This document shows positions 3,482-16,440 of a DNA stretch of 64,000 nt, one piece after another. Position 1 is the first letter of the stretch. Every line of letters begins with the position of its first letter. Both the position numbers and the translations under genes were made by a program. The stretch spans positions 15,867 to 79,866 of the IMG/VR virus record IMGVR_UViG_3300036851_000098; one strand, given 5' to 3'. Below the pieces are notes generated by a model. It saw nothing but the letters and a program-made list of their open reading frames with translations, had not been told where the DNA came from and ran no database searches. Origin of the DNA: a virus.

Positions 3482-6400
3482 GTGGATTTCTATCAGATCC
3501 TTGCACGCGAAACAAAGGACAAGAACGATCCGAGGTTGGAGTTGTACCCTGACTTCGTGGTCGGGCGCTCTGAGGATCTGATGGTCCAAGGCGGTAAGTT
3601 CTACGCCATTTGGGATGAAGAGAAGGGCCTATGGTCTCGCGATGAATATGACGTTCAGCGTCTTGTCGATGAGGATCTTCGGCAAACGAGAGAGCGGTTG
3701 GAACAGGATACAGGCCAGAAGTACACCGTGAAGTTCATGCGGTCATTCCACTCGAACATCTGGGCGCAGTTCCGGAAGTTCATGGCACATATTTCGGATA
3801 ACAGCAAGCCCTTGGACCGAAAGTTGGTGTTCGCCAACACGGAAGTGAAGAAGAAGGACTACGCTAGCAAGAAGCTTCCCTATGACATCGGTGAAGGTGA
3901 TATTTCCGCATGGGAAGAACTGACATCAACTCTGTATTCTCCAGACGAACGAGCGAAGATCGAGTGGGCGATCGGGTCAATTGTTGCCGGGGATTCAAAG
4001 AAGATCCAGAAGTTCCTGGTGTTCTACGGACCTCCAGGTACCGGGAAGTCAACGATCTTAAATATCATTCAGCAACTGTTCGAGGGGTATACGACTTCCT
4101 TCGATGGGAAGGCCCTTGGGTCATCTAGCTCTCAGTTCGCTACTGAGGCATTCAAATATAACCCTCTGGTGGCTATTCAGCATGACGGCGATCTTAGTCG
4201 TATCGAGGACAATGCGCGGCTGAACTCTATTGTCGCTCACGAAGAAATGACGATGAACGAGAAGTATAAGCCTTCATATTCTTCAAGAATCGATGCCATG
4301 CTGTTCCTCGGATCGAATCAGCCGGTGAGAATCTCCGATGCCAAGTCGGGTATTATTCGTCGACTGATCGATATTCATCCGACAGGAATCAAGTTCGCGC
4401 CAAAGCGCTACCAAACGCTTATGACTCAGATCGGCTTTGAGCTTGGCGCCATAGCGCATCATTGTCATCAAGTATATTTGACGATGGGCAAGAACTTCTA
4501 TAACGGTTATCGCCCGTTGGAGATGATGTTGCAGACCGATGTCTTCTTCAACTTCATCGAAGCTTACTTCGATGTGTTCAAGAAGCAGAATTACACCACA
4601 CTCAAGCAGGCTTACACGATGTATCGTGAGTACTGCGCTGAGAGCGGAATCGAGCGGCCCATGCCTCAGTACAAGATGCGTGAGGAACTGCGCAACTACT
4701 TTGATGAGTTCAAGGATAGAGGTGAGATCGATGGGGAAGCAGTTCGAAGCCTATATATGGGCTTCACGGCCGAGAAGTTCAAGACTCCTACGGATGATCC
4801 GACGCAGTTTTCGCTCGTCCTTGAAGAGAAGACGTCTCTGCTGGATGAGCTCCTCGCACGATTTCCCGCTCAGCTAGCAAACGCTGATGGGATGCCTACC
4901 AAACGGTGGGCAAATGTGACGACAACTCTTTCAGATATTGATTCGCGAAAAATTCACTACGTGAAAGTTCCTGAAAAACACGTGGTTATCGACTTCGATC
5001 TGAAGGACCAAAATGGCCATAAAGCTCTGGAAAGAAACCTGGAAGCGGCATCTCACTGGCCTGCTACTTATGCAGAGATCAGCAAGTCCGGCTCAGGAAT
5101 CCATCTTCATTACAACTACACCGGAGGCGATGTCTCAGATCTCAGGCGTGATTACGCTGATGGGATCGAAGTTAAGGTTTATACTGGTGACGCCTCTCTC
5201 CGTCGACGACTTACTCGCTGTAATAACGTGGGAGTGGCCGAAATCTCCAGCGGGCTTCCGCTAAAAGACAAGAGGGAGCCGATGCTAAAGACAAAAACTA
5301 TGCAGAGCGAACAAGGGCTCCGAGATTTGATTCAGCGGAATCTTCGTAAGGAGATTCATCCTGGAACCAAGCCTTCGGTGGACTTCATCAAGAAGGTCCT
5401 CGATGATGCTTACGAGTCAGGTATTCAGTATGACGTGACCGATCTTCGTAGTCGTATTGTCGCTTTCGCCAACAACTCCTCCAATCAGGCGCAGGCGTGT
5501 CTGAAGACGGTCAACGAGATGCGATGGAAGTCAGAAGAAGCTGGAGAAACCAAGGAGGAAGCCTTCACTTCCGACCATAATGTTGACGTAAAAGACGATC
5601 GCATTGCGTTCTTCGACGTAGAAGTCTATGAGAACCTCTTCGTGATCTGCTGGAAATTCCAGGGATCTGATGAAGTGGTGAAGATGGTCAACCCAAAGGC
5701 CCATGAGGTCGCGGAGTTGTTCAGTCTCAAGCTGGTTGGTTTCTACAACCGTCGATACGACAATCATATTCTTTACGCAGCAGCTATGGGAGCCAGTAAC
5801 GCGGAGCTCTTCACGTTGTCAAAGAAGTTGGTTATTGATAACAACCGATCAGTGTCGTTTGCTCAGGCGTACAATCTCTCATACGCTGATATTTGGGAGT
5901 TCTCGTCTGAGAAGAAGTCTCTGAAGAAGTTCGAGATTGACCTGGGGATCCTGCACATGGAGCTGGATATTCCTTGGGATCAGCCTGTTGACGAGAAGGA
6001 TTGGCCCAGAGTTGTGGCATACTGTGAAAACGACGTGCGCGCAACCGAAGCCGTGTTTGAGGATCGTAAGGGGGACTTCACAGCGCGGCTAATTCTAGCT
6101 GAGTTGTCTGGTTTGACCCCCAACGATACTACGCAAAACCATACCGCCAAGATCATATTTGGCGACAAGGTGAAGACAGCCAACAAAGACTTCGTCTACA
6201 CCGATCTCTCGAAGGAGTTCCCCGGGTACAAGTTCGAGCTCGGAAAGAGCTATTACAAGGGGGAAGAGCCTGGCGAAGGTGGCTATGTGTATGCCGAGCC
6301 GGGTATGTATTCAAATGTCGCCGTCTTGGATGTTGCATCGATGCATCCGATGTCGATCATCAAGCTGAACGCATTCGGTCCTTATACGCAGAAGTTCGAA

Positions 6401-7339
6401 GACTTGATCAAAGCTCGCATCGCGATCAAACGTAAAGATTTTGAGGCTGCCTCCTACATGATGGATGGGCGCCTGAAGCCGTTCCTCCTAAACGAGGACG
6501 AAAGCTATGACGTAGAGGGAGCTGACAAGCTTGCCTACGCACTCAAGATCGTGATCAATATTGTTTACGGTCTCACTTCTGCCAAGTTCGATAATCCGTT
6601 CCGCGATATTCGCAACGTCGACAACATCGTCGCCAAACGCGGCGCCTTATTCATGATCGATCTCAAGCACGCCTTGCAAGAGAAGGGCGTCTCGGTTGTG
6701 CACATCAAGACGGACTCTGTCAAGATCCCGGATACTACTCCGGATATCATCAAATTTGTCACAGAGTTCGGTGCCAAGTACGGGTATGACTTCGAGCACG
6801 AAGAGACATATGACCGATTCTGCCTGGTCAACGATGCGGTCTACGTGGCTGGGATTCAGGCAGTGCCTTGGGAAGAGAACTTCCCGAAGTATAAGTGGAC
6901 TGCTGTTGGTGCACAGTTCCAGCACCCTTACGTCTTCAAGACGTTGTTCTCAGAAGAAGATATTTCGTTTGAGGATTATCGAGAGGGTCGTTCTGTCGTC
7001 AAGGGAGCGATGTATCTCGATAAAGCGGAAATGGAAGAGCCTGACTACACCAAGATGCGCCATATTGGCAAGACTGGCCTGTTCGTTCCAGTTCTGTCTG
7101 GTGGCGGAAAGCTTTACCGCGTCAACAAAGATACAGATGCCGAAGGTCACGATATCGAAAAATACTACGCGGTGAGCGGTACTAAGGGCCATCTCTGGAT
7201 GGATGCCGATGAAGCAAGCGAAGCCAACGAGAAGGGCAATCTCGAAATTGACATGTCATATTTCGAGAAATTGAAAGATGACGCCGTCAAGACGATCGAG
7301 AAGTTCGGTAACTTCGACGAATTCATAGGGAGGAAGTGA
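3482..7339 (+). CDS. DNA helicase (SF3/D5-like)-primase-family B DNA polymerase fusion
   Basis: Walker A GPPGTGKS; prim-pol-like DFD...HLHY; exonuclease FFDVE, YN..YD, YCENDV; PolB motifs DVASMHP, KIVINIVYG, IKTDS. Confidence 0.9.
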   Translation: MDFYQILARETKDKNDPRLELYPDFVVGRSEDLMVQGGKFYAIWDEEKGLWSRDEYDVQRLVDEDLRQTRERLEQDTGQKYTVKFMRSFHSNIWAQFRKFMAHISDNSKPLDRKLVFANTEVKKKDYASKKLPYDIGEGDISAWEELTSTLYSPDERAKIEWAIGSIVAGDSKKIQKFLVFYGPPGTGKSTILNIIQQLFEGYTTSFDGKALGSSSSQFATEAFKYNPLVAIQHDGDLSRIEDNARLNSIVAHEEMTMNEKYKPSYSSRIDAMLFLGSNQPVRISDAKSGIIRRLIDIHPTGIKFAPKRYQTLMTQIGFELGAIAHHCHQVYLTMGKNFYNGYRPLEMMLQTDVFFNFIEAYFDVFKKQNYTTLKQAYTMYREYCAESGIERPMPQYKMREELRNYFDEFKDRGEIDGEAVRSLYMGFTAEKFKTPTDDPTQFSLVLEEKTSLLDELLARFPAQLANADGMPTKRWANVTTTLSDIDSRKIHYVKVPEKHVVIDFDLKDQNGHKALERNLEAASHWPATYAEISKSGSGIHLHYNYTGGDVSDLRRDYADGIEVKVYTGDASLRRRLTRCNNVGVAEISSGLPLKDKREPMLKTKTMQSEQGLRDLIQRNLRKEIHPGTKPSVDFIKKVLDDAYESGIQYDVTDLRSRIVAFANNSSNQAQACLKTVNEMRWKSEEAGETKEEAFTSDHNVDVKDDRIAFFDVEVYENLFVICWKFQGSDEVVKMVNPKAHEVAELFSLKLVGFYNRRYDNHILYAAAMGASNAELFTLSKKLVIDNNRSVSFAQAYNLSYADIWEFSSEKKSLKKFEIDLGILHMELDIPWDQPVDEKDWPRVVAYCENDVRATEAVFEDRKGDFTARLILAELSGLTPNDTTQNHTAKIIFGDKVKTANKDFVYTDLSKEFPGYKFELGKSYYKGEEPGEGGYVYAEPGMYSNVAVLDVASMHPMSIIKLNAFGPYTQKFEDLIKARIAIKRKDFEAASYMMDGRLKPFLLNEDESYDVEGADKLAYALKIVINIVYGLTSAKFDNPFRDIRNVDNIVAKRGALFMIDLKHALQEKGVSVVHIKTDSVKIPDTTPDIIKFVTEFGAKYGYDFEHEETYDRFCLVNDAVYVAGIQAVPWEENFPKYKWTAVGAQFQHPYVFKTLFSEEDISFEDYREGRSVVKGAMYLDKAEMEEPDYTKMRHIGKTGLFVPVLSGGGKLYRVNKDTDAEGHDIEKYYAVSGTKGHLWMDADEASEANEKGNLEIDMSYFEKLKDDAVKTIEKFGNFDEFIGRK

Positions 7340-7665
7340 TGAGGGAAGAACTACAAGAAAAGCTAGTGCTAGGTGGGTTTGTGTTGATTGGGCTTGCCCA
7401 ACTGGCACTCCACCCTCGAAAGACATACAACCTAGTCGTCCATAAAGTCGGCTGGCACAACTGATGGGAATCAACAACATAGGATTTCTTATCTCGGACG
7501 GCGACATTCACATTACGCTGCACCCTCCTGAGAGTTCGAGGATTATTCAAGCTCAAGCTGCATACGCACAAACTCTGATCGAAGCTCATCGCCGCGGAGA
7601 ACATCCGTGGGGAAACATGCGACGAGATTGTCCGTTGTGCCAGCTGAATAAATAGAAAGGAAATT

Positions 7666-7926
7666 TTGTCCCGACATATTATCGAGCAGGGGGAGAAGAA
7701 ATACGTGTTCGGCTGGGATCAGTCGCTCATGAGCTTCTATCTTCAAATTCATGATCTACTCAAAGAGCCAGATCATGAGGATCGAATTCCTGTTTGGTTG
7801 GGGGCTACAGTAAATACTCGCATGTACGAAGTTGAGGAGCTTGTACATGCAGCTCAGAAGTATGGGCTACATATTGATCATCAAACGCAGGTCAAACTCT
7901 ACGGAGAAAAAGATGATGGAGTCTAG
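7666..7926 (+). CDS. hypothetical protein
   Basis: AAAGGA SD, TTG start; FGWD..LMSFYLQ. Confidence 0.65.
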   Translation: MSRHIIEQGEKKYVFGWDQSLMSFYLQIHDLLKEPDHEDRIPVWLGATVNTRMYEVEELVHAAQKYGLHIDHQTQVKLYGEKDDGV

Positions 7927-8209
7927 AATAGAAGCATCTGCTGAGGAGAGGCAAAAAGTTCTTCTTAACATGCTAAACACTCTAGGCTCTTTGACAGTTC
8001 AGAAAGCATGGGAAGTTGGACATAGTGCAGGGTTCTACATCGGTGGCGATGTAGGTCTTGTCAAGGACGATCTAAAGGCGCTCAGTAATCAACGACTGGC
8101 TCGTCGACATGATGGGTTTTGGCGCCACATCAATGAGCCGGATCGTATTCGGCGAAAGTATAAGCGGTGGGCTGATTACTGGACCCCGCTTGGGAAAGGA
8201 GTTAAGTGA
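7913..8209 (+). CDS. hypothetical protein (possible winged helix)
   Basis: Coupled ORF with GGAG SD. Confidence 0.5.
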   Translation: MMESRIEASAEERQKVLLNMLNTLGSLTVQKAWEVGHSAGFYIGGDVGLVKDDLKALSNQRLARRHDGFWRHINEPDRIRRKYKRWADYWTPLGKGVK

Positions 8210-8682
8210 AGTATAGAAAGAAGCCACCTGTCGTCGAAGCCACTCAGTGGTGGAGAAACGGCGATCATCCCCAAGACAAGTCAAAGTCGGTAGACACCGC
8301 TGGTGGAGGAACTACTCTCACCGAAGGTAAGGTCGTCCGATATTTCCGCCGACTCAACGTTCCTGGGAATCGATTCTGTCAGGAATGTGGGCAGATTATG
8401 CAGCGGCACGGTCTCCTTAACGGACTGAACGGAGAAGAGGTCATCTGCCCTGGTGACTATATCGTCACCAACAAGCAGGGGCTTCTCTACCGAATGAGGT
8501 CCGTCGACTTCGAGGCTCAGTACGAGCCGTACGATACGGTCGCTCATCCGTCGCCCAAGATGGATAAGCCCGAGCCGGTCTTGGCGGATGAGGAACAAGG
8601 GAAGAACCCTCCGAAGGAGGATAAATCCCCTCCCAAGAAGCCTGAGCCAATCACAGTCGATCCTGGCAAAGTAAGTTCGTGA
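8206..8682 (+). CDS. KYRKKP...PGDY family phage protein (possible nucleotide-signal sponge)
   Basis: MKYRKKP.VVEA.QW ... PGDYIV...G..Y....FEAQYEP. Confidence 0.65.
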   Translation: MKYRKKPPVVEATQWWRNGDHPQDKSKSVDTAGGGTTLTEGKVVRYFRRLNVPGNRFCQECGQIMQRHGLLNGLNGEEVICPGDYIVTNKQGLLYRMRSVDFEAQYEPYDTVAHPSPKMDKPEPVLADEEQGKNPPKEDKSPPKKPEPITVDPGKVSS

Positions 8683-8888
8683 GGATTAACCAAGATACTC
8701 TGCGTCGAGATACGGTGGTATTGATAACCGAGATCGACAAGCAGATCGAAGAAGCTAAGTCAGCTATGAGAGCCTCTACGTCGACTACGTTGACGCGCAA
8801 CTTCTCAGCTGATTCCACGTATGCCACGTTGCTTGGAGCCAAGGCAACGGCATACAACACACTCGTACTCCTCCAAACCAAGAGATAA
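8679..8888 (+). CDS. hypothetical protein
   Basis: Coupled ORF (GTGA overlap). Confidence 0.55.
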   Translation: MRINQDTLRRDTVVLITEIDKQIEEAKSAMRASTSTTLTRNFSADSTYATLLGAKATAYNTLVLLQTKR

Positions 8889-8890
8889 AG

Positions 8891-9112
8891 ATGGATGAGT
8901 ACCCCATATTCACCAAGGAAGCGTTGAAGGATCAAGATGGTAAAAAGGTCCCTCTGACCAAGTACCCAGGGGGACCGGTCATCGGCGAATGCACTCTGAA
9001 GTACAACGAAGCTGAGAAACGGTTGGACCTTGTTGAAGCCAGCATCACAGACGAGGCGTATCTCAAGTTGCTCAGCAATCCATCCGTGCCCATATCTAAG
9101 AAGGAGAGGTAA
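8891..9112 (+). CDS. hypothetical protein
   Basis: Tightly packed ORF, stop overlaps SSB start. Confidence 0.55.
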   Translation: MDEYPIFTKEALKDQDGKKVPLTKYPGGPVIGECTLKYNEAEKRLDLVEASITDEAYLKLLSNPSVPISKKER

Positions 9113-9600
9113 TGTCACGTGTAGAAGAGCCAGTTGTGATGGAGAATGTGAGGATCATTTTCCGTAACTTCGAAGGCAAGGAAGGCCCGTTCAACAAGCC
9201 GGGAGAGCGAAACTTCGGCGTGGTCCTTCCGCCTGACGTCGCCGAAGCCATGGCGCGCGACGGATGGAACGTCAAATATCTCGACCCGAGAGACGAAGAC
9301 GAGATCGACCCCAATGATCCGTTGGAGGGCCGGACCCCATGGCTATCGGTGAAGGTCGCCTACGACAAGGGACGTCCGCCGAAGATCATGCTGATCACGT
9401 CTCGTGGAAAGACGGCGCTGGACGAGGCCACGGTCAAGGAGCTCGATTGGGCCGACATCACTAACGTCGATCTGATCGTCAGTCCGTTTAACTGGGAAAT
9501 CAACCAGAAGGCGGGAGTCGCGGCCTACTGCAAGTCGATGTTTGTCACGATCGAGGAGGACGAACTCGAGCGCAAGTACGCAGAGATGGACGGGCAGTAA
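9112..9600 (+). CDS. single-stranded DNA-binding protein (phage type)
   Basis: RIIFRNF.G....N..G.RNF, GWNVK, VDLIVSP..W, acidic C-terminus; lies in replication block. Confidence 0.75.
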   Translation: MSRVEEPVVMENVRIIFRNFEGKEGPFNKPGERNFGVVLPPDVAEAMARDGWNVKYLDPRDEDEIDPNDPLEGRTPWLSVKVAYDKGRPPKIMLITSRGKTALDEATVKELDWADITNVDLIVSPFNWEINQKAGVAAYCKSMFVTIEEDELERKYAEMDGQ

Positions 9601-9777
9601 TGGTTCGACAGTGGAACTGGGAACTGATCGGAGTTCTCTTCGCGCTGGCATGCTTCTGGGTCTTTGTGATCTGGAGCTTGATGGAGATCTTCTAACGTGA
9701 TCACCGGCGCCATCATCATGCTTGTGGGGATCCTCGTTGGATGGGCCCTGAAATCTTCTACCACTTCTGACACGTAA
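9600..9777 (+). CDS. two tiny membrane peptides (9600-9695, 9697-9777)
   Basis: MVRQWNWELIGVLFALACFWVFVIWSLMEIF* and MITGAIIMLVGILVGWALKSSTTSDT*, packed end to end. Confidence 0.45.
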
Positions 9778-9810
9778 ATCCGTAAAATACGGAAGGACAC
9801 TGCCGTACAT

Positions 9811-10218
9811 ATGACAGCTGTTACCACAACTCGATACATCAGGAAGCCACTCTACGTCGATGCTGTGAGGGTGACCAAGCAGAACTTCGACGCGATTGCG
9901 GAGTGGTGCCAGGGTGAGATCCTGGAGGAGGATGACAGGAACCAGCAGGAACAGAAGTTCATCCGGGTCCGTGTCCACAATCCGAAGAACACGCGTCAGA
10001 CGCAGGCGTTCGTCGGAGACTGGATCCTCTATACCGAGCGCGGCTACAAGGTCTACACGAACAAGGCCTTCCGAGGTTCGTTTGACCTGGTGGAAGTGGA
10101 GGATCCGGACCTGGACCTCGACGAGGAGCTCTCAGAGGAGGAAGAGGCGACCTTTCAGAACGGCACTAAGCTAGAGGAGAAGACCTTTTCGGAACCCGCC
10201 GATGAGAAGGTGGCGTAG
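9811..10218 (+). CDS. phage protein related to the KKP...GD(W/Y)I family
   Basis: RYIRKPLYVDAV...AFVGDWILY...YKVY...AF..SF, acidic tail. Confidence 0.7.
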   Translation: MTAVTTTRYIRKPLYVDAVRVTKQNFDAIAEWCQGEILEEDDRNQQEQKFIRVRVHNPKNTRQTQAFVGDWILYTERGYKVYTNKAFRGSFDLVEVEDPDLDLDEELSEEEEATFQNGTKLEEKTFSEPADEKVA

Positions 10219-10220
10219 TC

Positions 10221-10571
10221 ATGTCGACAACACCGGATATTTTCGGGGATAACCGGCAAGACATCGCACCGCCGGAGCGTTCGCTCAAGCAACGTATGGA
10301 GGCGTTGCATACCGCCAATCGAATCCGTTCCGCACGAGCGAAGTTGAAGCTCGATCTGAAAGCGGGACGTGAGCGCGTTCACGATATTCTTCTGGAACCG
10401 CCGGAGTATATCGAGACGATGAAGGCTTTCGACCTATTGTTGGCCACACCGAAGTACGGACGAGTCAAGACAAATCGACTCTTGGCTCAGTGCCGGATGT
10501 CTCCCTCGAAGACGATCGGTGGAATGAGCGAACGTCAGCGGAACGAACTCGTCTCAATGCTGAGACGATAG
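10221..10571 (+). CDS. mihF: actinobacterial-type integration host factor (mIHF, H2TH fold)
   Basis: QRMEAL..AN.IR..RA.LK.DLK.G; K.FDLLLA.PKYGRVK..RLL...R.SPSKTIGG.SERQR.EL. Confidence 0.88.
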   Translation: MSTTPDIFGDNRQDIAPPERSLKQRMEALHTANRIRSARAKLKLDLKAGRERVHDILLEPPEYIETMKAFDLLLATPKYGRVKTNRLLAQCRMSPSKTIGGMSERQRNELVSMLRR

Positions 10572-10589
10572 CAGCTATATCTGGTCGAC

Positions 10590-11072
10590 AGCCGGTGACG
10601 ATCTAGGGAATAGGTAGCCACGCATTCAAATAAGTCGTGAGGGTAGAACAATACGCATCGCTTTAACGGATAAGTGATCTTAAGTTATTGCGACTCGTGT
10701 CCCTCGTTGTGTAAATCCTATTAGGGCTGTGGAAGCGGGTAGATCACAAAACCCCCTTCGCCCTAGATGACCGATAAAATAGAGGTCCGGGGGTGATAAA
10801 CCACACCGGTATAAGTCGATTTCTGAGGTCGATCGAAAGGGTGAGTCCTAGGCCACCTTACCTCTATAAACGTGATGGGACACGCCCATCGCCGTAAGTC
10901 CTGCAACGCGTGGAGGCAAATGCCTGCGAAGCTCGTGTCAGTCAGGTAAATCGGCAACACGTGAGGTTCGCCGCTCACGTCAATAGAGCACCCGTTGTGG
11001 TGGACTCGAGTTAAACCCGGGGTAGTGACCTGGTACCAGGGGGAGATCGGCGCCCCCTGGTCATTACATATT
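10590..11072 (+). ncRNA. candidate large structured ncRNA 1 (about 480 nt)
   Basis: No credible ORF; nested helices 10601-08/10761-68, 10633-40/10688-95, 10779-86/10860-67, 10872-92, 10959-80, 11035-43/11053-61. Confidence 0.7.
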
Positions 11073-11095
11073 CCCCCCGGAAAGGAGGTGACAGC

Positions 11096-11275
11096 ATGGG
11101 GAGAAAGTGGGCAAAGGTTGGTTTGACTTCCGACGGAACGCTGTACATCTCTGAGGAAGTTCGTCCGGGAGATGCGATGCGTCTCGAGAAGGCGATGACC
11201 AACCCCGAGAAGAAGGAACAGCTCGAGAAGCGTATGGACGATCTGATCGTCGCTCTCGGGGCGAAGTGGGGATAA
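11096..11275 (+). CDS. hypothetical protein (59 aa, not in ORF track)
   Basis: Strong SD AAAGGAGGTG; MGRKWAKVGLTSDG... Confidence 0.75.
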   Translation: MGRKWAKVGLTSDGTLYISEEVRPGDAMRLEKAMTNPEKKEQLEKRMDDLIVALGAKWG

Positions 11276-11282
11276 GTTAGAA

Positions 11283-11429
11283 GTTGGGAGTCCTAGCGTA
11301 CGCCTATTGGCTGTAACCGCGTATTCTGGCGGCAGAACAGTAGCTTTGCGTGTAAAGAGGACGAAGTTGGATTGGGGAGCGCCGGAGAGTGTCGCTCGAG
11401 GCACAGAAGGTCGGGAAACTCCAACATAT
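11283..11429 (+). ncRNA. candidate structured ncRNA 2 (about 150 nt)
   Basis: Closing helix gttgggagt 11283-91/actccaac 11418-25, internal hairpins, followed by CATAT. Confidence 0.5.
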
Positions 11430-11475
11430 GTACAACACAATTCCTGGGTGGATACCTAGGAGAAAGGATGGGCGG

Positions 11476-11859
11476 ATGCTCACCCGAATCAGGATCGAAG
11501 TAGAAGGCGCCGATTCGGCGGCCGCATGCGAGGAAGAGCTTTCCAAGTACGAACACGCCATGCAAGTAACCGAGGCGCAACGCTATGGCATCGGCTACGA
11601 ATACATCGAAACCGAGAAAGGAATAAATCAGTCCTCAGCCACTCATCGCCCATGGGATTTCTCGGTGGAAACCCGAGACTTCTATAACTCGCAACTCGGA
11701 CGTGAGGTGACCGATGAGGTCATCGAATACGATGCGTCTCTGCCTGGCTACCGAGGTCGGCGAGTGGTGCAGTTCAAGCGTATGGACACGCGTGCCTACA
11801 CATACGGCCGAGCGGATCAGCATGAGGTCGGAGAGGCGGCTCGTCAGAGCCTTGCTTAA
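11476..11859 (+). CDS. hypothetical protein
   Basis: AAAGGA SD before ATG 11476 (MLTRIRIEVEG). Confidence 0.7.
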   Translation: MLTRIRIEVEGADSAAACEEELSKYEHAMQVTEAQRYGIGYEYIETEKGINQSSATHRPWDFSVETRDFYNSQLGREVTDEVIEYDASLPGYRGRRVVQFKRMDTRAYTYGRADQHEVGEAARQSLA

Positions 11860-11867
11860 TAAGTAAT

Positions 11868-12453
11868 TCAGTAGATCGGGAGATCGGGCCCCTTTTGATC
11901 GGGGGTGGATAATACCGGCTGACGCGGGATGATGGAGATCATATCCGAAAGGATAAGGTCGTTGGGACGCCCGCATTACTTTGGGTCAACCTGGGCTCAA
12001 GGGTCGACGAGAGTCGATTGGCTCACTCCGTACGTTATGTCGGAGGACAACAGAGGCCAATGGCGGACTACGCCTGTTCGAAAGCGAGGCGTCGGTTTGA
12101 GAGGGCCGAAGACGTTTGAATTCCTCTCTTGTGTGGTCAAGACCCGATAAGAAGCTTGGTCATAAGGACTAAAAGGCAGACTAAGCTCGCCGCACAAAGT
12201 AGGCCTGCTCTACTATTTCAGGAAGTCCGACTCTAGTGAGAATACCTATGGGCCCTCCTAGATAGGCGCTGCGTCAGAGGTCAGACGTAGAGGGATGGAA
12301 TAGAACCCCACCTCTTATCCAACGATGGGAGACGTTAGGAATCGGAGTGAGCCGATCCTGAACGCGAACCTATTGGCTGCGGCCATGGAAGAAGGATTCC
12401 ACTTTGTATAAGAGTTTCTCTCTGAAAGACCGGTCTATTCGCGATCCCATATT
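11868..12453 (+). ncRNA. candidate large structured ncRNA 3 (about 585 nt)
   Basis: End-to-end helix 11870-79/12430-39; 13-bp helix 12018-30/12343-55; GNRA-capped hairpins at 11942-55, 12004-17, 12070-92, 12093-108. Confidence 0.75.
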
Positions 12454-12479
12454 TAGAGACCCCAATTTAAAGGAACATC

Positions 12480-12575
12480 ATGAAGCTTTTCTTCGTAATT
12501 CTTCTAGCAATCCTCGTCGCATTTGGTGGACTGCTGTGGTTCCTTCGTTGGGCCGCGCAGGATATCGACCAGTGA
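12480..12575 (+). CDS. small membrane peptide
   Basis: AAAGGA SD; MKLFFVILLAILVAFGGLLWFLRWAAQDIDQ*. Confidence 0.6.
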   Translation: MKLFFVILLAILVAFGGLLWFLRWAAQDIDQ

Positions 12576-12991
12576 GCACTAACCGTATCCCAGTTTTGCT
12601 CCTTCCTGGGGTAAATCACACCGAAGATCTTGTGGGATTCGGCGAACTCACAGATGACGGAAAGCTGATCATCACCGTAGAGCACGACCGAGGATATTCG
12701 AGAACTCTATCTGAGTCTCGGGTTTACTCTACAAGACGGCTACCGAACGAGAAGTATATGATGAAGTGGTTGCAAAGGTTTCAACGCAGTAAAGAAGAAC
12801 GTGTTCTCAAAGCAATTCGAAACAATGTCCGATTTACTTTAGAGATCAGCAAGGAAGCGCGCATTGGTATTAGTTCCTTATATCCCATTCTAGCCCGTTT
12901 AGAGAATGACGGAGTCATCGACAGCGCTTGGGGTTGGGACGACAATATCAAACGGCGAGTCTATTACATCAAGGAAGAAAATCATGAGTAA
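12572..12991 (+). CDS. PadR-like winged-helix protein
   Basis: C-terminal EI......SSLYPILARLE.DG.I.S.W......RRVYYI; GTGA coupling. Confidence 0.7.
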   Translation: MSTNRIPVLLLPGVNHTEDLVGFGELTDDGKLIITVEHDRGYSRTLSESRVYSTRRLPNEKYMMKWLQRFQRSKEERVLKAIRNNVRFTLEISKEARIGISSLYPILARLENDGVIDSAWGWDDNIKRRVYYIKEENHE

Positions 12992-13238
12992 TTGGCCAAC
13001 GTTGTCAACTACCTGGCCGATCATCTGGGCGGTAAAGCGGAATGACGGGGAGCCAGGTCTCGTTATCTGTCGGGCTAAGGACAGAGAAGGAGCCAAGCGG
13101 ATTGCAGCAAAGCGACTACTTGGTAATCCGGATCAGTTCATTGTCGAACCCCTCTCTCGAGAAGGAGAGGCGGTCGTATTTGATCTCGAAATTGAAGGGA
13201 AGAAGAATGACACGCGTCTACGAGGTTTTCGTGGTTAG
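12984..13238 (+). CDS. hypothetical protein
   Basis: AAGGA SD, coupled ORF. Confidence 0.55.
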   Translation: MSNWPTLSTTWPIIWAVKRNDGEPGLVICRAKDREGAKRIAAKRLLGNPDQFIVEPLSREGEAVVFDLEIEGKKNDTRLRGFRG

Positions 13239-13305
13239 TGGTTCCACTCGGAACCTACAGGCTAAGACTAGCCTGGTCTAACCACCAACTAGAAGGAGGC
13301 CAGTA

Positions 13306-13458
13306 ATGGCCGAGGGCGCGAACTCCATCGTCGACCTCAAGAAGTACTTGTCGACACCGGAGAACCCGGTGACAATGGAAGAGCTCAAGGAGTTTTGGGA
13401 GTCCTGCTCCGACGAGGAGAAGGAGCAGTTCAAGAACACGGAGCTGCCGAAAAGCTAG
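13306..13458 (+). CDS. small hypothetical protein (50 aa)
   Basis: AAGGAGG SD; MAEGANSIVDLKKYL...EFWESCSDEEKEQF. Confidence 0.7.
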   Translation: MAEGANSIVDLKKYLSTPENPVTMEELKEFWESCSDEEKEQFKNTELPKS

Positions 13459-13467
13459 TGTGTTAAT

Positions 13468-14057
13468 TTGGTTGATAATGATGCCTGGGAGAAGAACGGG
13501 ATTCATTATCAACCTTGGGTGAGAGTGAAGCTAAACGTCGATCTGTGTATGCGCCTGCCATCATCACTGGGTATATACTAGGGAGTTTGGTGGAACGTTA
13601 GGACTACATAGGAACGCGCAATATGTCCTTCTCACCCTAAATAATCGGGGAGCCTCACCGGTGCACCGGGAGAAGGAGGCGATGCTGAATAGGGGAGTGG
13701 GCTAATGATCCACGGGTGACTTCAGCAAAAGTAGTGCTTGTCAGACCCCTGGAGGTCGTGAAACACCTCGGGGCAAGTGGCTGATGAGATCTGGCAGCGT
13801 ACCGGTATTTAAGCCATCTCCCGGATGCGTGGTCAGGGGGCAATGGGGTCTCACCGGGGGGTTGGTATGGATTGCGGATTCCTGATACTGACTCCCCGGC
13901 CCGCCTCAATAAGACTTATATTCAAATAATCAATTGGAGGAATCATGAGCGATTGATCGGTAGGGCGTCGGAATCCGACCCCAATTAAATATCAACCAGG
14001 AACGGTAAAGAGAGTGGGGGTGTCTACGGCGAGAGGGTCGAGGCACCCCTGCATATT
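13468..14057 (+). ncRNA. candidate large structured ncRNA 4 (about 590 nt)
   Basis: Helices 13470-81/13503-14, 13517-24/13630-37, 13683-89/13721-27, 13737-44/13781-88, 13854-68/13885-99, 14014-25/14041-52; no SD-led ORF. Confidence 0.72.
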
Positions 14058-14074
14058 TCAGAAAGGAGGCACGT

Positions 14075-14551
14075 ATGATGAGACCACTACTAGCAGTTCT
14101 AGCAACTCTCTGTACGTGTATCGGGCTGGCAGCGCCAGCTTCAGCGGATTGGCGATGGGCCGATCCAACTATCAAACCGGTCAAACCGAAGATATTTGAT
14201 TGCAAGATAAAACTGTGCCAAAAGAAGGCCAAGCGTGTAGCAACCCTGAAATACAGGTTGAAGGTAGCGAAGTACTCGTATAAGAAGGAGCGCGAGTGGC
14301 AGCGCTGGATCAACCAGTATATTCCGGCCTGTACTTGGTACGGCGAGAGTGGCCCAGGACCTGAATTTGCGGCCTGGCGATACGCCGTACCAAATACAAT
14401 GGGATCATCTGCTCGAGGGAAATACCAGATGATGCCCGGAACTTACTCTTCAAGAGCCAGATATTTCGATTGGAGTCCGCTCGATCAAGAGATCGCGGGT
14501 CATCGAGAGTTCTGGGCAAACGGAACCTCCCCCTGGGAGGCTTGCCACTAG
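14075..14551 (+). CDS. secreted lysozyme-like transglycosylase (Rpf-like)
   Basis: Signal peptide (A-S-A); ESG...N..SSA.GKYQ..P.T, SP.DQ...., W..G.SPW..C. Confidence 0.72.
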   Translation: MMRPLLAVLATLCTCIGLAAPASADWRWADPTIKPVKPKIFDCKIKLCQKKAKRVATLKYRLKVAKYSYKKEREWQRWINQYIPACTWYGESGPGPEFAAWRYAVPNTMGSSARGKYQMMPGTYSSRARYFDWSPLDQEIAGHREFWANGTSPWEACH

Positions 14552-14565
14552 AAAGGAATGTTGGG

Positions 14566-14823
14566 ATGGACGGCGACCTCGCATTGAAGTATCTCGATGC
14601 TACGCCTAAATGCCCTCGAACTGAGACAATTGAAAAAAGCTCTGGTCGAGGCGTTATGGGAAGCAAATCAAAGGTCGAAGTGATGTGTGGCGCCGTCCTT
14701 TCCTGGAAACATGGTGTGAACGGGTTCGGCTCATGGTGGTGCGGCGTTCATGGCCTGATTGACGAGGCTCGTCCAGTTCAACCACTACGCGGAGATTCCC
14801 GAGAAGGTCTTTCAGCAGCGTAA
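14566..14823 (+). CDS. hypothetical Cys/His protein
   Basis: AAAGGA SD; CP...CG...WWCGVHG. Confidence 0.55.
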   Translation: MDGDLALKYLDATPKCPRTETIEKSSGRGVMGSKSKVEVMCGAVLSWKHGVNGFGSWWCGVHGLIDEARPVQPLRGDSREGLSAA

Positions 14824-14832
14824 GGAGAGAGC

Positions 14833-15051
14833 ATGCCTTTCGAAATGACAATGCGTCCAAGCGAGTTGCGTGGTGTTCGTGAAGCAATGCGCACCATGCC
14901 CAAGCTCATACAATCTCTCAACGATGGGGAAGTTGAGAAATATGTTCTTATGAAGCGAGGGCGTGTTGTTGCCGTAATGCTAGATCTGGAAGACTACTCC
15001 GAAATGGTAGAAAGGACGAAGAATGCCGACAGAGTCGAACACCAGCAGTGA
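14833..15051 (+). CDS. Phd/YefM-like antitoxin (orphan)
   Basis: GVREA...MPKLI..L..GE.E..VL.KRGR.VAVML.LEDY. Confidence 0.65.
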   Translation: MPFEMTMRPSELRGVREAMRTMPKLIQSLNDGEVEKYVLMKRGRVVAVMLDLEDYSEMVERTKNADRVEHQQ

Positions 15052-15376
15052 TCTAGGCCCCAATGCTCGGCACAAGCACACACCGACTCCAGTGAAATGT
15101 TTTGACGGCAAGGGAGAAGTGCGTCTTTTGATACCCATCGAAACTCCTAAAGAGCGAATGGCACGAGTGGTCAAGAATATTCGAGAGAAGAAGCGATGAG
15201 AACCAAGAAGGTTCGTAACTATTTCGCCCCTCGGTGGTGGCAATTCAAGCTTCGCTATCGACTTAAAAAACAGGAACGTCGACTAGCTCAACTCGTACAG
15301 CGAAGAAAAATCGATGATATAGAATCTACCATCGATCATCGAATTATCTATGGAACCAAAATAGACAAAGGATAAA

Positions 15377-16416: not shown

Positions 16417-16440
16417 TCGTGGGGTTTCACTGCGCATAAT
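16417..16440 (+). promoter_or_regulatory. phage promoter-like motif P1
   Basis: TCGTG-N5-TCA-N6-ATAAT, matches three other copies. Confidence 0.5.

Follow-up and report, generated by a model that had tools for sequence, protein, structure and literature searches.

The 620-base gap between open reading frames (ORFs) at positions 11860-12479 of an uncultured soil actinophage sequence appears, from comparison with related phages, to be a real, conserved, sense-strand structured RNA region. It is made up, patchwork-like, of separately inherited RNA modules, which differ in distribution and are shuffled among small genes. By the explanation we favor, it would be a composite of independently folding units on the sense strand, namely module A, insertion X, the P helix with the central domain, and the 3′ domain, which most likely ride on a rightward polycistronic transcript. 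They would act at the RNA level as autonomous units, gained, lost, and rearranged over evolution along with small gene cassettes. Our best guess at a mechanism is cis action on the transcript, that is, processing, stability, read-through, or translation of the neighboring cassettes. On balance, we hold this account of cis-acting, co-transcribed modules within an operon transcript to be the probable one, its structural part being more secure than its functional part.

A non-coding gap in an actinophage genome

The window, meaning the whole 64,000-nt stretch of DNA that was analyzed, comes from a complete IMG/VR virus record of 79.9 kb, in which it spans bases 15867-79866. Genes run rightward throughout, and the gene set is that of a siphovirus-type phage (primase-polymerase, a YonO/QDE-1-like single-chain RNA polymerase, terminase, portal, and collagen-like tail fibers). 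The RNA polymerase has 250 actinophage relatives among Arthrobacter, Gordonia, and Streptomyces phages, each at <60% identity. The gap opens at the TAA TAA of the upstream gene (11857-11862) and closes at a gene with its own SD and an ATG at 12480. It is one of several ORF-free stretches of a larger non-coding “RNA island” (10572-14074) bordered on the left by an mIHF-like gene and on the right by a secreted-protein gene, from which the element studied here is separated by five ORFs. Judged by a C-terminal motif, the secreted protein looks Rpf/transglycosylase-like; Pfam and PDB searches returned no confirmation of an Rpf fold. Neither flanking gene (tblastn) nor the region 11400-13000 (blastn, distant setting) had a match among 50,697 GenBank phages, so the locus has no cultured relatives there. 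The upstream ORF gave no relatives as an IMG/VR query, and ARAGORN detected no tRNA or tmRNA gene over the window.

Several neighbors deserve mention. The upstream 156-aa ORF (11389-11859) has a GTG start inside a copy of module 0, and a likelier start is the ATG at 11467 behind AGGAG, which gives 130 aa. Directly downstream of the gap lie a 31-aa hydrophobic peptide (12480-12575) and a PadR-like winged-helix protein (12578-12991; Pfam E = 1e-6, above the curated cut-off). A conserved counterpart of the island's first gap (10572-11095) is present in the related contig G006 (locus L121, 11139-11445; 86% identity over 49 nt).

The gap is non-coding. TAA, TAG, and TGA interrupt all six of its frames, so a reassigned stop codon cannot restore a gene, and recoding was rejected as the cause of the gap. 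The one longer ORF, of 73 codons, had been flagged in the initial annotation as a danger to its RNA reading should the protein prove conserved. It had no homologue among 5.8 billion clusters and belonged to no PHROG family. Moreover, its ATG lies inside the conserved string GGGAUGAYGGAG, behind which the window, G001, L059, and L057 carry inserts of 26, 26, 25, and 0 nt; the conserved bases downstream are therefore read in different frames, and the frame of the ORF is not kept. Substitutions relative to G006, the closest homologue of the 3′ domain, fall on the three codon positions 16, 15, and 17 times and show no 3-periodicity. A much shorter mini-ORF, AUG GGC CCU CCU AGA UAG (MGPPR*), sits in a central hairpin. 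Its counterpart in G006 is AUG CCU CCU CGA UGA (MPPR*; L121 12147-12161), and G001 and G002 have none; the two versions differ in the Arg and stop codons and by a 3-nt indel, a codon-consistent difference, and a leader peptide is possible. A hairpin and UAUUUCAGGAAG precede it, resembling the initiation region at 14054.

Beside the gap, we found no consensus for a promoter or a terminator. A repeated promoter-like motif, TCGCG-N14-TATAAT(GAGACC), occurs at genome positions 4429-15096, before the window, and at window positions 16417, 17896, 18189, and 28501, with positions that align, and there is none between window positions −770 and 16417. The sequencing runs comprised one DNA run with the sequence, which may be that of the source sample, and no RNA run was listed. 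In the window as in L059, only 12-14 nt separate module A from the preceding stop codon; with neither a promoter nor a terminator close by, co-transcription with the operon would be the simplest reading.

Table 1. Features of the gap and its surroundings (window positions unless a locus is named; L118 belongs to G001 and L121 to G006)
Feature	Position	Strand	Description
mIHF-like gene	10221-10571	+	left border of island
Module A	11874-11978	+	two hairpins, A1 and A2
Hairpin A1	11882-11920	+	encloses CCCC/GGGG at 11889-11905
Hairpin A2	GCGGG 11924-28 / CCCGC 11970-74	+	conserved internal loop AUGAYGGAG...GGGAC
Variable tip of A2	11938-11963	+	carries the GAAA-capped stem
73-aa ORF	11929-12150	+	judged spurious
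GAAA loop	11947	+	5-bp stem, 11942-46/11951-55
Insertion X	11983-12127	+	145 nt, window-specific; two GAGA hairpins, 12016-30 arm, CGGACU 12064-69
GAGA loop	12009	+	7-bp stem; hairpin 12002-19
GAGA loop	12099	+	7 bp, three G-U; hairpin 12092-109
P helix (ttgtgtgg/ccgcacaa)	12129-36/12190-97	+	encloses 53-nt hairpin; pairing probability 0.84-0.97
38-nt block	12196-12233	+	AAAGUAGGCCUGCUCUACUAUUUCAGGAAGUCCGACUC; 100% identical in G001
Central domain	12234-12322	+	hairpins 12234-60 (variable), 12269-75/12284-90, 12291-93/12313-15; GAUAGGC 12261-67
Mini-ORF MGPPR*	12248-12265	+	in central hairpin
3′ domain	12324-12446	+	helices H1-H5
H1	12324-29/12369-74	+	3′ domain
H2	12333-45/12352-64	+	loop RGUGAG; four compensatory changes
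H3	12375-77/12382-84	+	3′ domain
H4	12387-96/12416-23	+	3′ domain
H5	12432-35/12443-46	+	3′ domain
End-closing pairing	11870-79/12430-39		initial annotation
13-bp pairing	12018-30/12343-55		initial annotation; extends to 15 bp with one G-U, 12016-30/12343-57
3′ arm of long-range helix	12343-12357	+	loop and 3′ strand of conserved hairpin H2
cggact/agtccg pairing	12064-69/12224-29		initial annotation
Module 0 copies	11363-11428, 13681-13729; L118 4474-4540, 4907-4958; L057 157-219; L121 11991-12056		
Module B	L118 4997-5031; L116 5079-5117; L057 341-373; L059 (− strand); L121 12393-12430; window 13937-13957		window copy a variant
Module C	14016-14050; L118 5090-5125; L116 5163-5200		
Secreted-protein gene	14075-14551	+	right border of island

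Conserved modules and their separate inheritance

The RNA polymerase led us to related virus contigs, among which a DNA search located parts of the region in G001 and G002. Two soil-metagenome fragments, L057 and L059, came from a degenerate pattern built on the hairpin of module A, and a neighboring-motif pattern gave G006. These five phage contigs were compared with the window, and the family numbers ~6 contigs from a small clade of uncultured soil actinophages. Of the 22 hits in the metagenome scan, only L057 and L059 were new true homologues; L067 and L074 re-found G001 and G002, and the others were chance hits in GC-rich coding DNA. All 36 hits of a GTDB genome scan were due to chance, exact or degenerate DNA patterns matched only G001, G002, and G006 in IMG/VR, and three loci found via the mIHF-like gene (L117, L119, and L120) had no non-coding gap. 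A soil contig (L062) and a Binatia MAG (L088) have ~100 nt in common around a chance pattern match (GCGGGAUGAUGGAGGAGGUGAGGGGAGAGG...GACGCCCGC), and this stretch may be another conserved non-coding element.

One structural signal lies in the 3′ domain, which occurs in the window and G006 only (covariance model R1: E = 3e-50 in G006 and no match in 20 other related virus records). All 33 pairs are kept between the two, 9 of them changed on both sides and 7 with G-U. Slid controls gave at most one such compensatory pair, and none of 500 shuffles reached nine. The RGUGAG loop of H2 is conserved at 100%. The central domain is common to G001, G006, and, in diverged form, G002; 5 of its 28 pairs changed on both sides, vs. 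at most one in slid controls, and it carries no thermodynamic signal (z = +0.9). Here, GCCUGCUC (12203-11) could alternatively pair with GAUAGGC (12260-67). The P helix has a counterpart at the same position but of different sequence in three relatives: CUUUGCCaGAGG/CCUCGGCAAGG in G001, UUUGGAGUA/UACUCCAAA in G002, and L121 12067-78/12093-105 in G006. Counting the window, four genomes thus have a helix abutting the conserved block, and its sequence differs from one genome to the next. Helices kept by compensatory change, as expected generically of conserved structured RNAs, were therefore present in the 3′ domain, the central domain, and the P helix, at an alignment depth of 2-4 homologues per module, three of which are close relatives, so that the covariation statistics are thin, and with structures derived from the same sequences.

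Unpaired sequence is also conserved. The 38-nt block is unchanged in G001 and ~85% identical in G006, while the mIHF-like, RNA polymerase, and secreted-protein genes of G001 are 67-75% identical to those of the window and the encoded proteins are only 61-78% identical between the window and its relatives. The region is thus conserved at least as well as genes. Module A is 80-83% identical in G001, L057, and L059 (80% vs. G001), and G002 retains only its hairpin A2. The RNAalifold structure of module A has G-U pairs in all sequences and little covariation (z = −2.1). Hairpin tips differ in length; that of A2 is replaced or missing in relatives, with the unequal inserts described above being unrelated in sequence. 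Both module A and the 38-nt block are single copy in the genome, and a reading of either as a multi-copy promoter was rejected on that ground. G001 and G002 lack insertion X, and their P helix begins 7-8 nt after module A; the insertion had no match in any locus compared, and its folding z-score is −0.7. Whole-region folding gave a z-score of only −1.9, with the modules ranging from −2.1 to +0.9. The G-U pairs in the conserved helices speak for the plus strand, since the opposite one would have A-C mismatches in their place.

The modules do not travel together. In L059, modules A, B, and C take up 275 nt, which is the whole interval from the mIHF-like to the secreted-protein gene. G001 has module 0, module A, the P helix with the central domain, a second module 0 copy (0′), and modules B and C, all within an ORF-free 850 nt. 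Module A is missing from G006, which has module 0, the P helix with the central domain, the 3′ domain, and module B, and G002 has hairpin A2 alone followed by the P helix and central domain. Nothing of the studied element beyond module A is present in L057 or L059. In the window, small ORFs are interleaved between the modules. The genes that follow the central and 3′ domains differ between the window and G006, so the modules seem to be autonomous units not tied to any single gene. This difference speaks against dedicated control of one gene and leaves room for a role in trans.

Other modules of the island lie outside the gap. Module 0 has the form GAAGCUGGAUAGGGGA-[variable hairpin]-GGGUGACUCCAGCA, is multi-copy within a genome, and has no Rfam match. 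Its closing stem varies by compensation (GCUGGA/UCCAGC, GCUGAA/UUCAGC, and GUUGGA/UCCAAC), and among the small motifs of the island it seems to have the best support. G006 carries the 12-mer GGGGTGAGCCGG in two places, within module 0 (L121 12003) and on the loop side of H2 (12255). Module B consists of a strong SD (AAAGGAGG) and a 3-5-codon mini-ORF (MGR*, MGRTR*, MGWSD*, or MGWKH*; MSD* in the window) within a hairpin, UGGGCC/GGCCUA, that covaries to GGGGC/GCCCU in L057. Module C, a long GC-rich hairpin, lies 15-25 nt ahead of the secreted-protein gene's SD. The G002 version is a canonical terminator with a U7 tail, suggesting that this gene is controlled by attenuation.

Known RNA classes and a possible large RNA

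None of 4,227 Rfam families matched the window at gathering score. At E <= 10, the stretch 11700-12650 gave only a chance lncRNA hit, and four related loci gave nothing at E <= 1. Size and GNRA loops invite comparison with group I and II introns and RNase P RNA. However, group I models (P3-P9 core) failed to match at gathering score or at E <= 10, as did the domain V/VI and D1-D4 models of group II. The two stop codons ending the upstream gene, together with the downstream gene's own SD and ATG, mean that no gene is interrupted. For RNase P RNA, GGAAGUCCG resembles CR-I GGAAAGUCC, but no bacterial type A or B model matched. CR-I and CR-V form the P4 helix of RNase P RNA; here, the sole CGGACU partner of GGAAGUCCG belongs to insertion X, which is specific to the window, and neither G001 nor G006 has it. 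Riboswitch aptamer models, including ydaO, and models for ROOL, GOLLD, OLE, HEARO, and raiA were likewise without a match in the window and four related loci (E <= 1 for the related loci). A structured, non-coding, plus-strand RNA region outside the canonical classes, as the initial annotation had proposed, thus agrees with these searches and with the compensated helices, and the modules are candidates for one or more new RNA families whose known distribution is narrow.

Some known systems nevertheless offer useful comparisons. GOLLD and ROOL are large, ornate RNAs carried by phages and prophages (PMC5737381; bioRxiv 10.1101/2024.12.08.627333). Our region resembles them in being phage-borne, ORF-free over several hundred nucleotides, and rich in helices, with GNRA-capped hairpins in the window copy; it differs in having no covariance-model match, no inheritance as a single unit, no tRNA neighborhood, and a distribution of ~6 contigs of one clade. 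Among cis-acting RNAs, the put elements of phage HK022 are processive antiterminators. By description, they and other operon-internal RNA elements resemble our modules as sense-strand paired-hairpin modules within a long phage operon with no promoter of their own, and module 0 is multi-copy; unlike the case of put, no terminators were identified downstream of the studied element. Actinobacterial rpf and other cell-wall hydrolase genes carry long structured leaders, such as the ydaO-type c-di-AMP riboswitch. The likeness is that the island closes, in every relative, with a hairpin placed immediately ahead of the SD of the secreted-protein gene, for which Rpf is our assumption. By contrast, our element has no riboswitch match, and it is the five intervening ORFs and the lack of Pfam or PDB confirmation of the Rpf fold that set it apart.

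Next after the cis-acting modules, we rank a free-standing, stable, trans-acting large ncRNA, consisting of the element or a 0.3-0.85-kb island, processed from the operon transcript, and representing a new class comparable to GOLLD and ROOL that would serve as a scaffold or as a decoy for proteins or ribosomes. The ~850 ORF-free nucleotides of G001 are consistent with such an RNA, as are the complete conservation of loops and single strands (the 38-nt block and the RGUGAG loop), the independence of the central and 3′ domains from one downstream gene, and the GNRA hairpins and improbable 15-bp pairing described below. Still, we consider it unlikely. The modules occur separately, ORFs break up the island in the window, the large-RNA families gave no covariance-model match, no promoter or terminator of its own was found, and the GNRA loops and long-range helix are not conserved. 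In a bolder version, the whole island from the mIHF-like to the secreted-protein gene would be a large, modular ncRNA of a new actinophage class, with a factor of the host or the phage binding to its conserved single strands and loops; in this phage, insertion X would have become a 15-bp clamp or switch onto H2. This we regard as similarly doubtful.

A more mundane possibility is that the region is non-functional debris of decayed genes and translation-initiation regions, looking conserved only because of recent shared ancestry or recombination. Insertion X, with no homologue and a z-score of −0.7, would be the main part concerned; a string resembling a translation-initiation region (hairpin plus UAUUUCAGGAAG) and mini-ORFs do occur, and phage mosaicism is evident across the region. 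However, the region is conserved at least as well as the genes, a 38-nt block is unchanged, and H1-H4 and the P helix show compensatory changes, making this explanation improbable for the gap as a whole.

The closed fold and its helices

The model of the initial annotation was a compact 585-nt RNA, ribozyme-like or self-assembling, with its two ends paired and a 13-bp helix as a second closure. The four pairings drawn for it are all literally present in the sequence, yet only the P helix was upheld by folding and comparison: pairing probability was 0.97 for this helix, vs. 0.2 for cggact/agtccg, 0.02 for the 13-bp helix, and 0.009 for the ends. By our comparison, it is also the sole one of the four with comparative support. 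Forcing all four together gave −206.7 kcal/mol vs. −214.7 kcal/mol for the MFE structure, a cost of 8 kcal/mol. The end-closing helix scored 21, below the mean best chance helix (P = 0.99), and its best partners in the relatives were A/U- and G-U-rich or lay inside other hairpins, so it was judged a chance pairing. Of the cggact/agtccg helix, AGUCCG is conserved in G001 and G006 and its CGGACU partner is found in neither.

The 13-bp helix is a less simple case. In its extended form, it scored 37.5 vs. a mean of 25.2 for the best helix in 1,000 dinucleotide shuffles (P = 0.003), and only 2.4% of natural 621-nt window tiles scored as high, so its statistical improbability stands. As an element of a conserved fold, however, it did not hold. 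Its 3′ arm is shared with the loop and 3′ strand of H2, which makes the two mutually exclusive, and its 5′ arm lies in insertion X and has no counterpart in G006. Single-sequence helices can mislead, since even this improbable pairing was contradicted by comparative data.

Similarly, three of the four GNRA-capped hairpins claimed are real and enriched, and the fourth (GAAA at 12080) has no contiguous closing stem. Five GNRA hairpins with stems of at least 4 bp were observed vs. 0.58 expected (P = 0.0005), and three with stems of at least 5 bp vs. 0.23 (P = 0.0015), placing the region in the top 0.5% of window tiles. All three real hairpins fall within window-specific sequence, and no relative has GNRA hairpins or the 13-bp, end, or cggact helices. 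A search by eye for the canonical 11-nt GAAA receptor (CCUAAG/UAUGG) found UAUGG at 12245 and no CCUAAG partner.

The existing pairings, the unusual repeat, and the GNRA enrichment speak for a single closed molecule. Against it stand a closing helix at chance level, the exclusion of H2 with its four compensatory changes, 5′ arms of two helices in an insertion that all relatives lack, and the separate occurrence of the parts, with G006 lacking module A and L057 and L059 lacking everything past it. We therefore consider one compact, end-closed molecule very improbable. The modular reading in turn leaves the 15-bp repeat and the GNRA enrichment in insertion X unexplained.

Finally, a DNA-level element, such as an origin or operators for the mIHF-like and PadR-like neighbors, is the least credible of all: the conserved helices contain G-U pairs, their stems change by compensation around fixed loops, and a repeat search found no iterons or dyad operators, even though both genes adjoin and GATCGGG is repeated in module A. 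We thus favor the cis-acting modules first and the free large ncRNA second, with the closed fold, debris, and DNA element behind.

To our knowledge, almost no RNA biology has been described for phages of the soil Actinobacteria type. Phage genomes leave little space unused, so an island with several hundred to 850 nt free of ORFs and conserved as well as the neighboring genes is probably doing something. If its modules are autonomous RNA devices, they would constitute a new set of phage RNA elements, which may serve as stabilizers, antiterminators, translational controls, or decoys.
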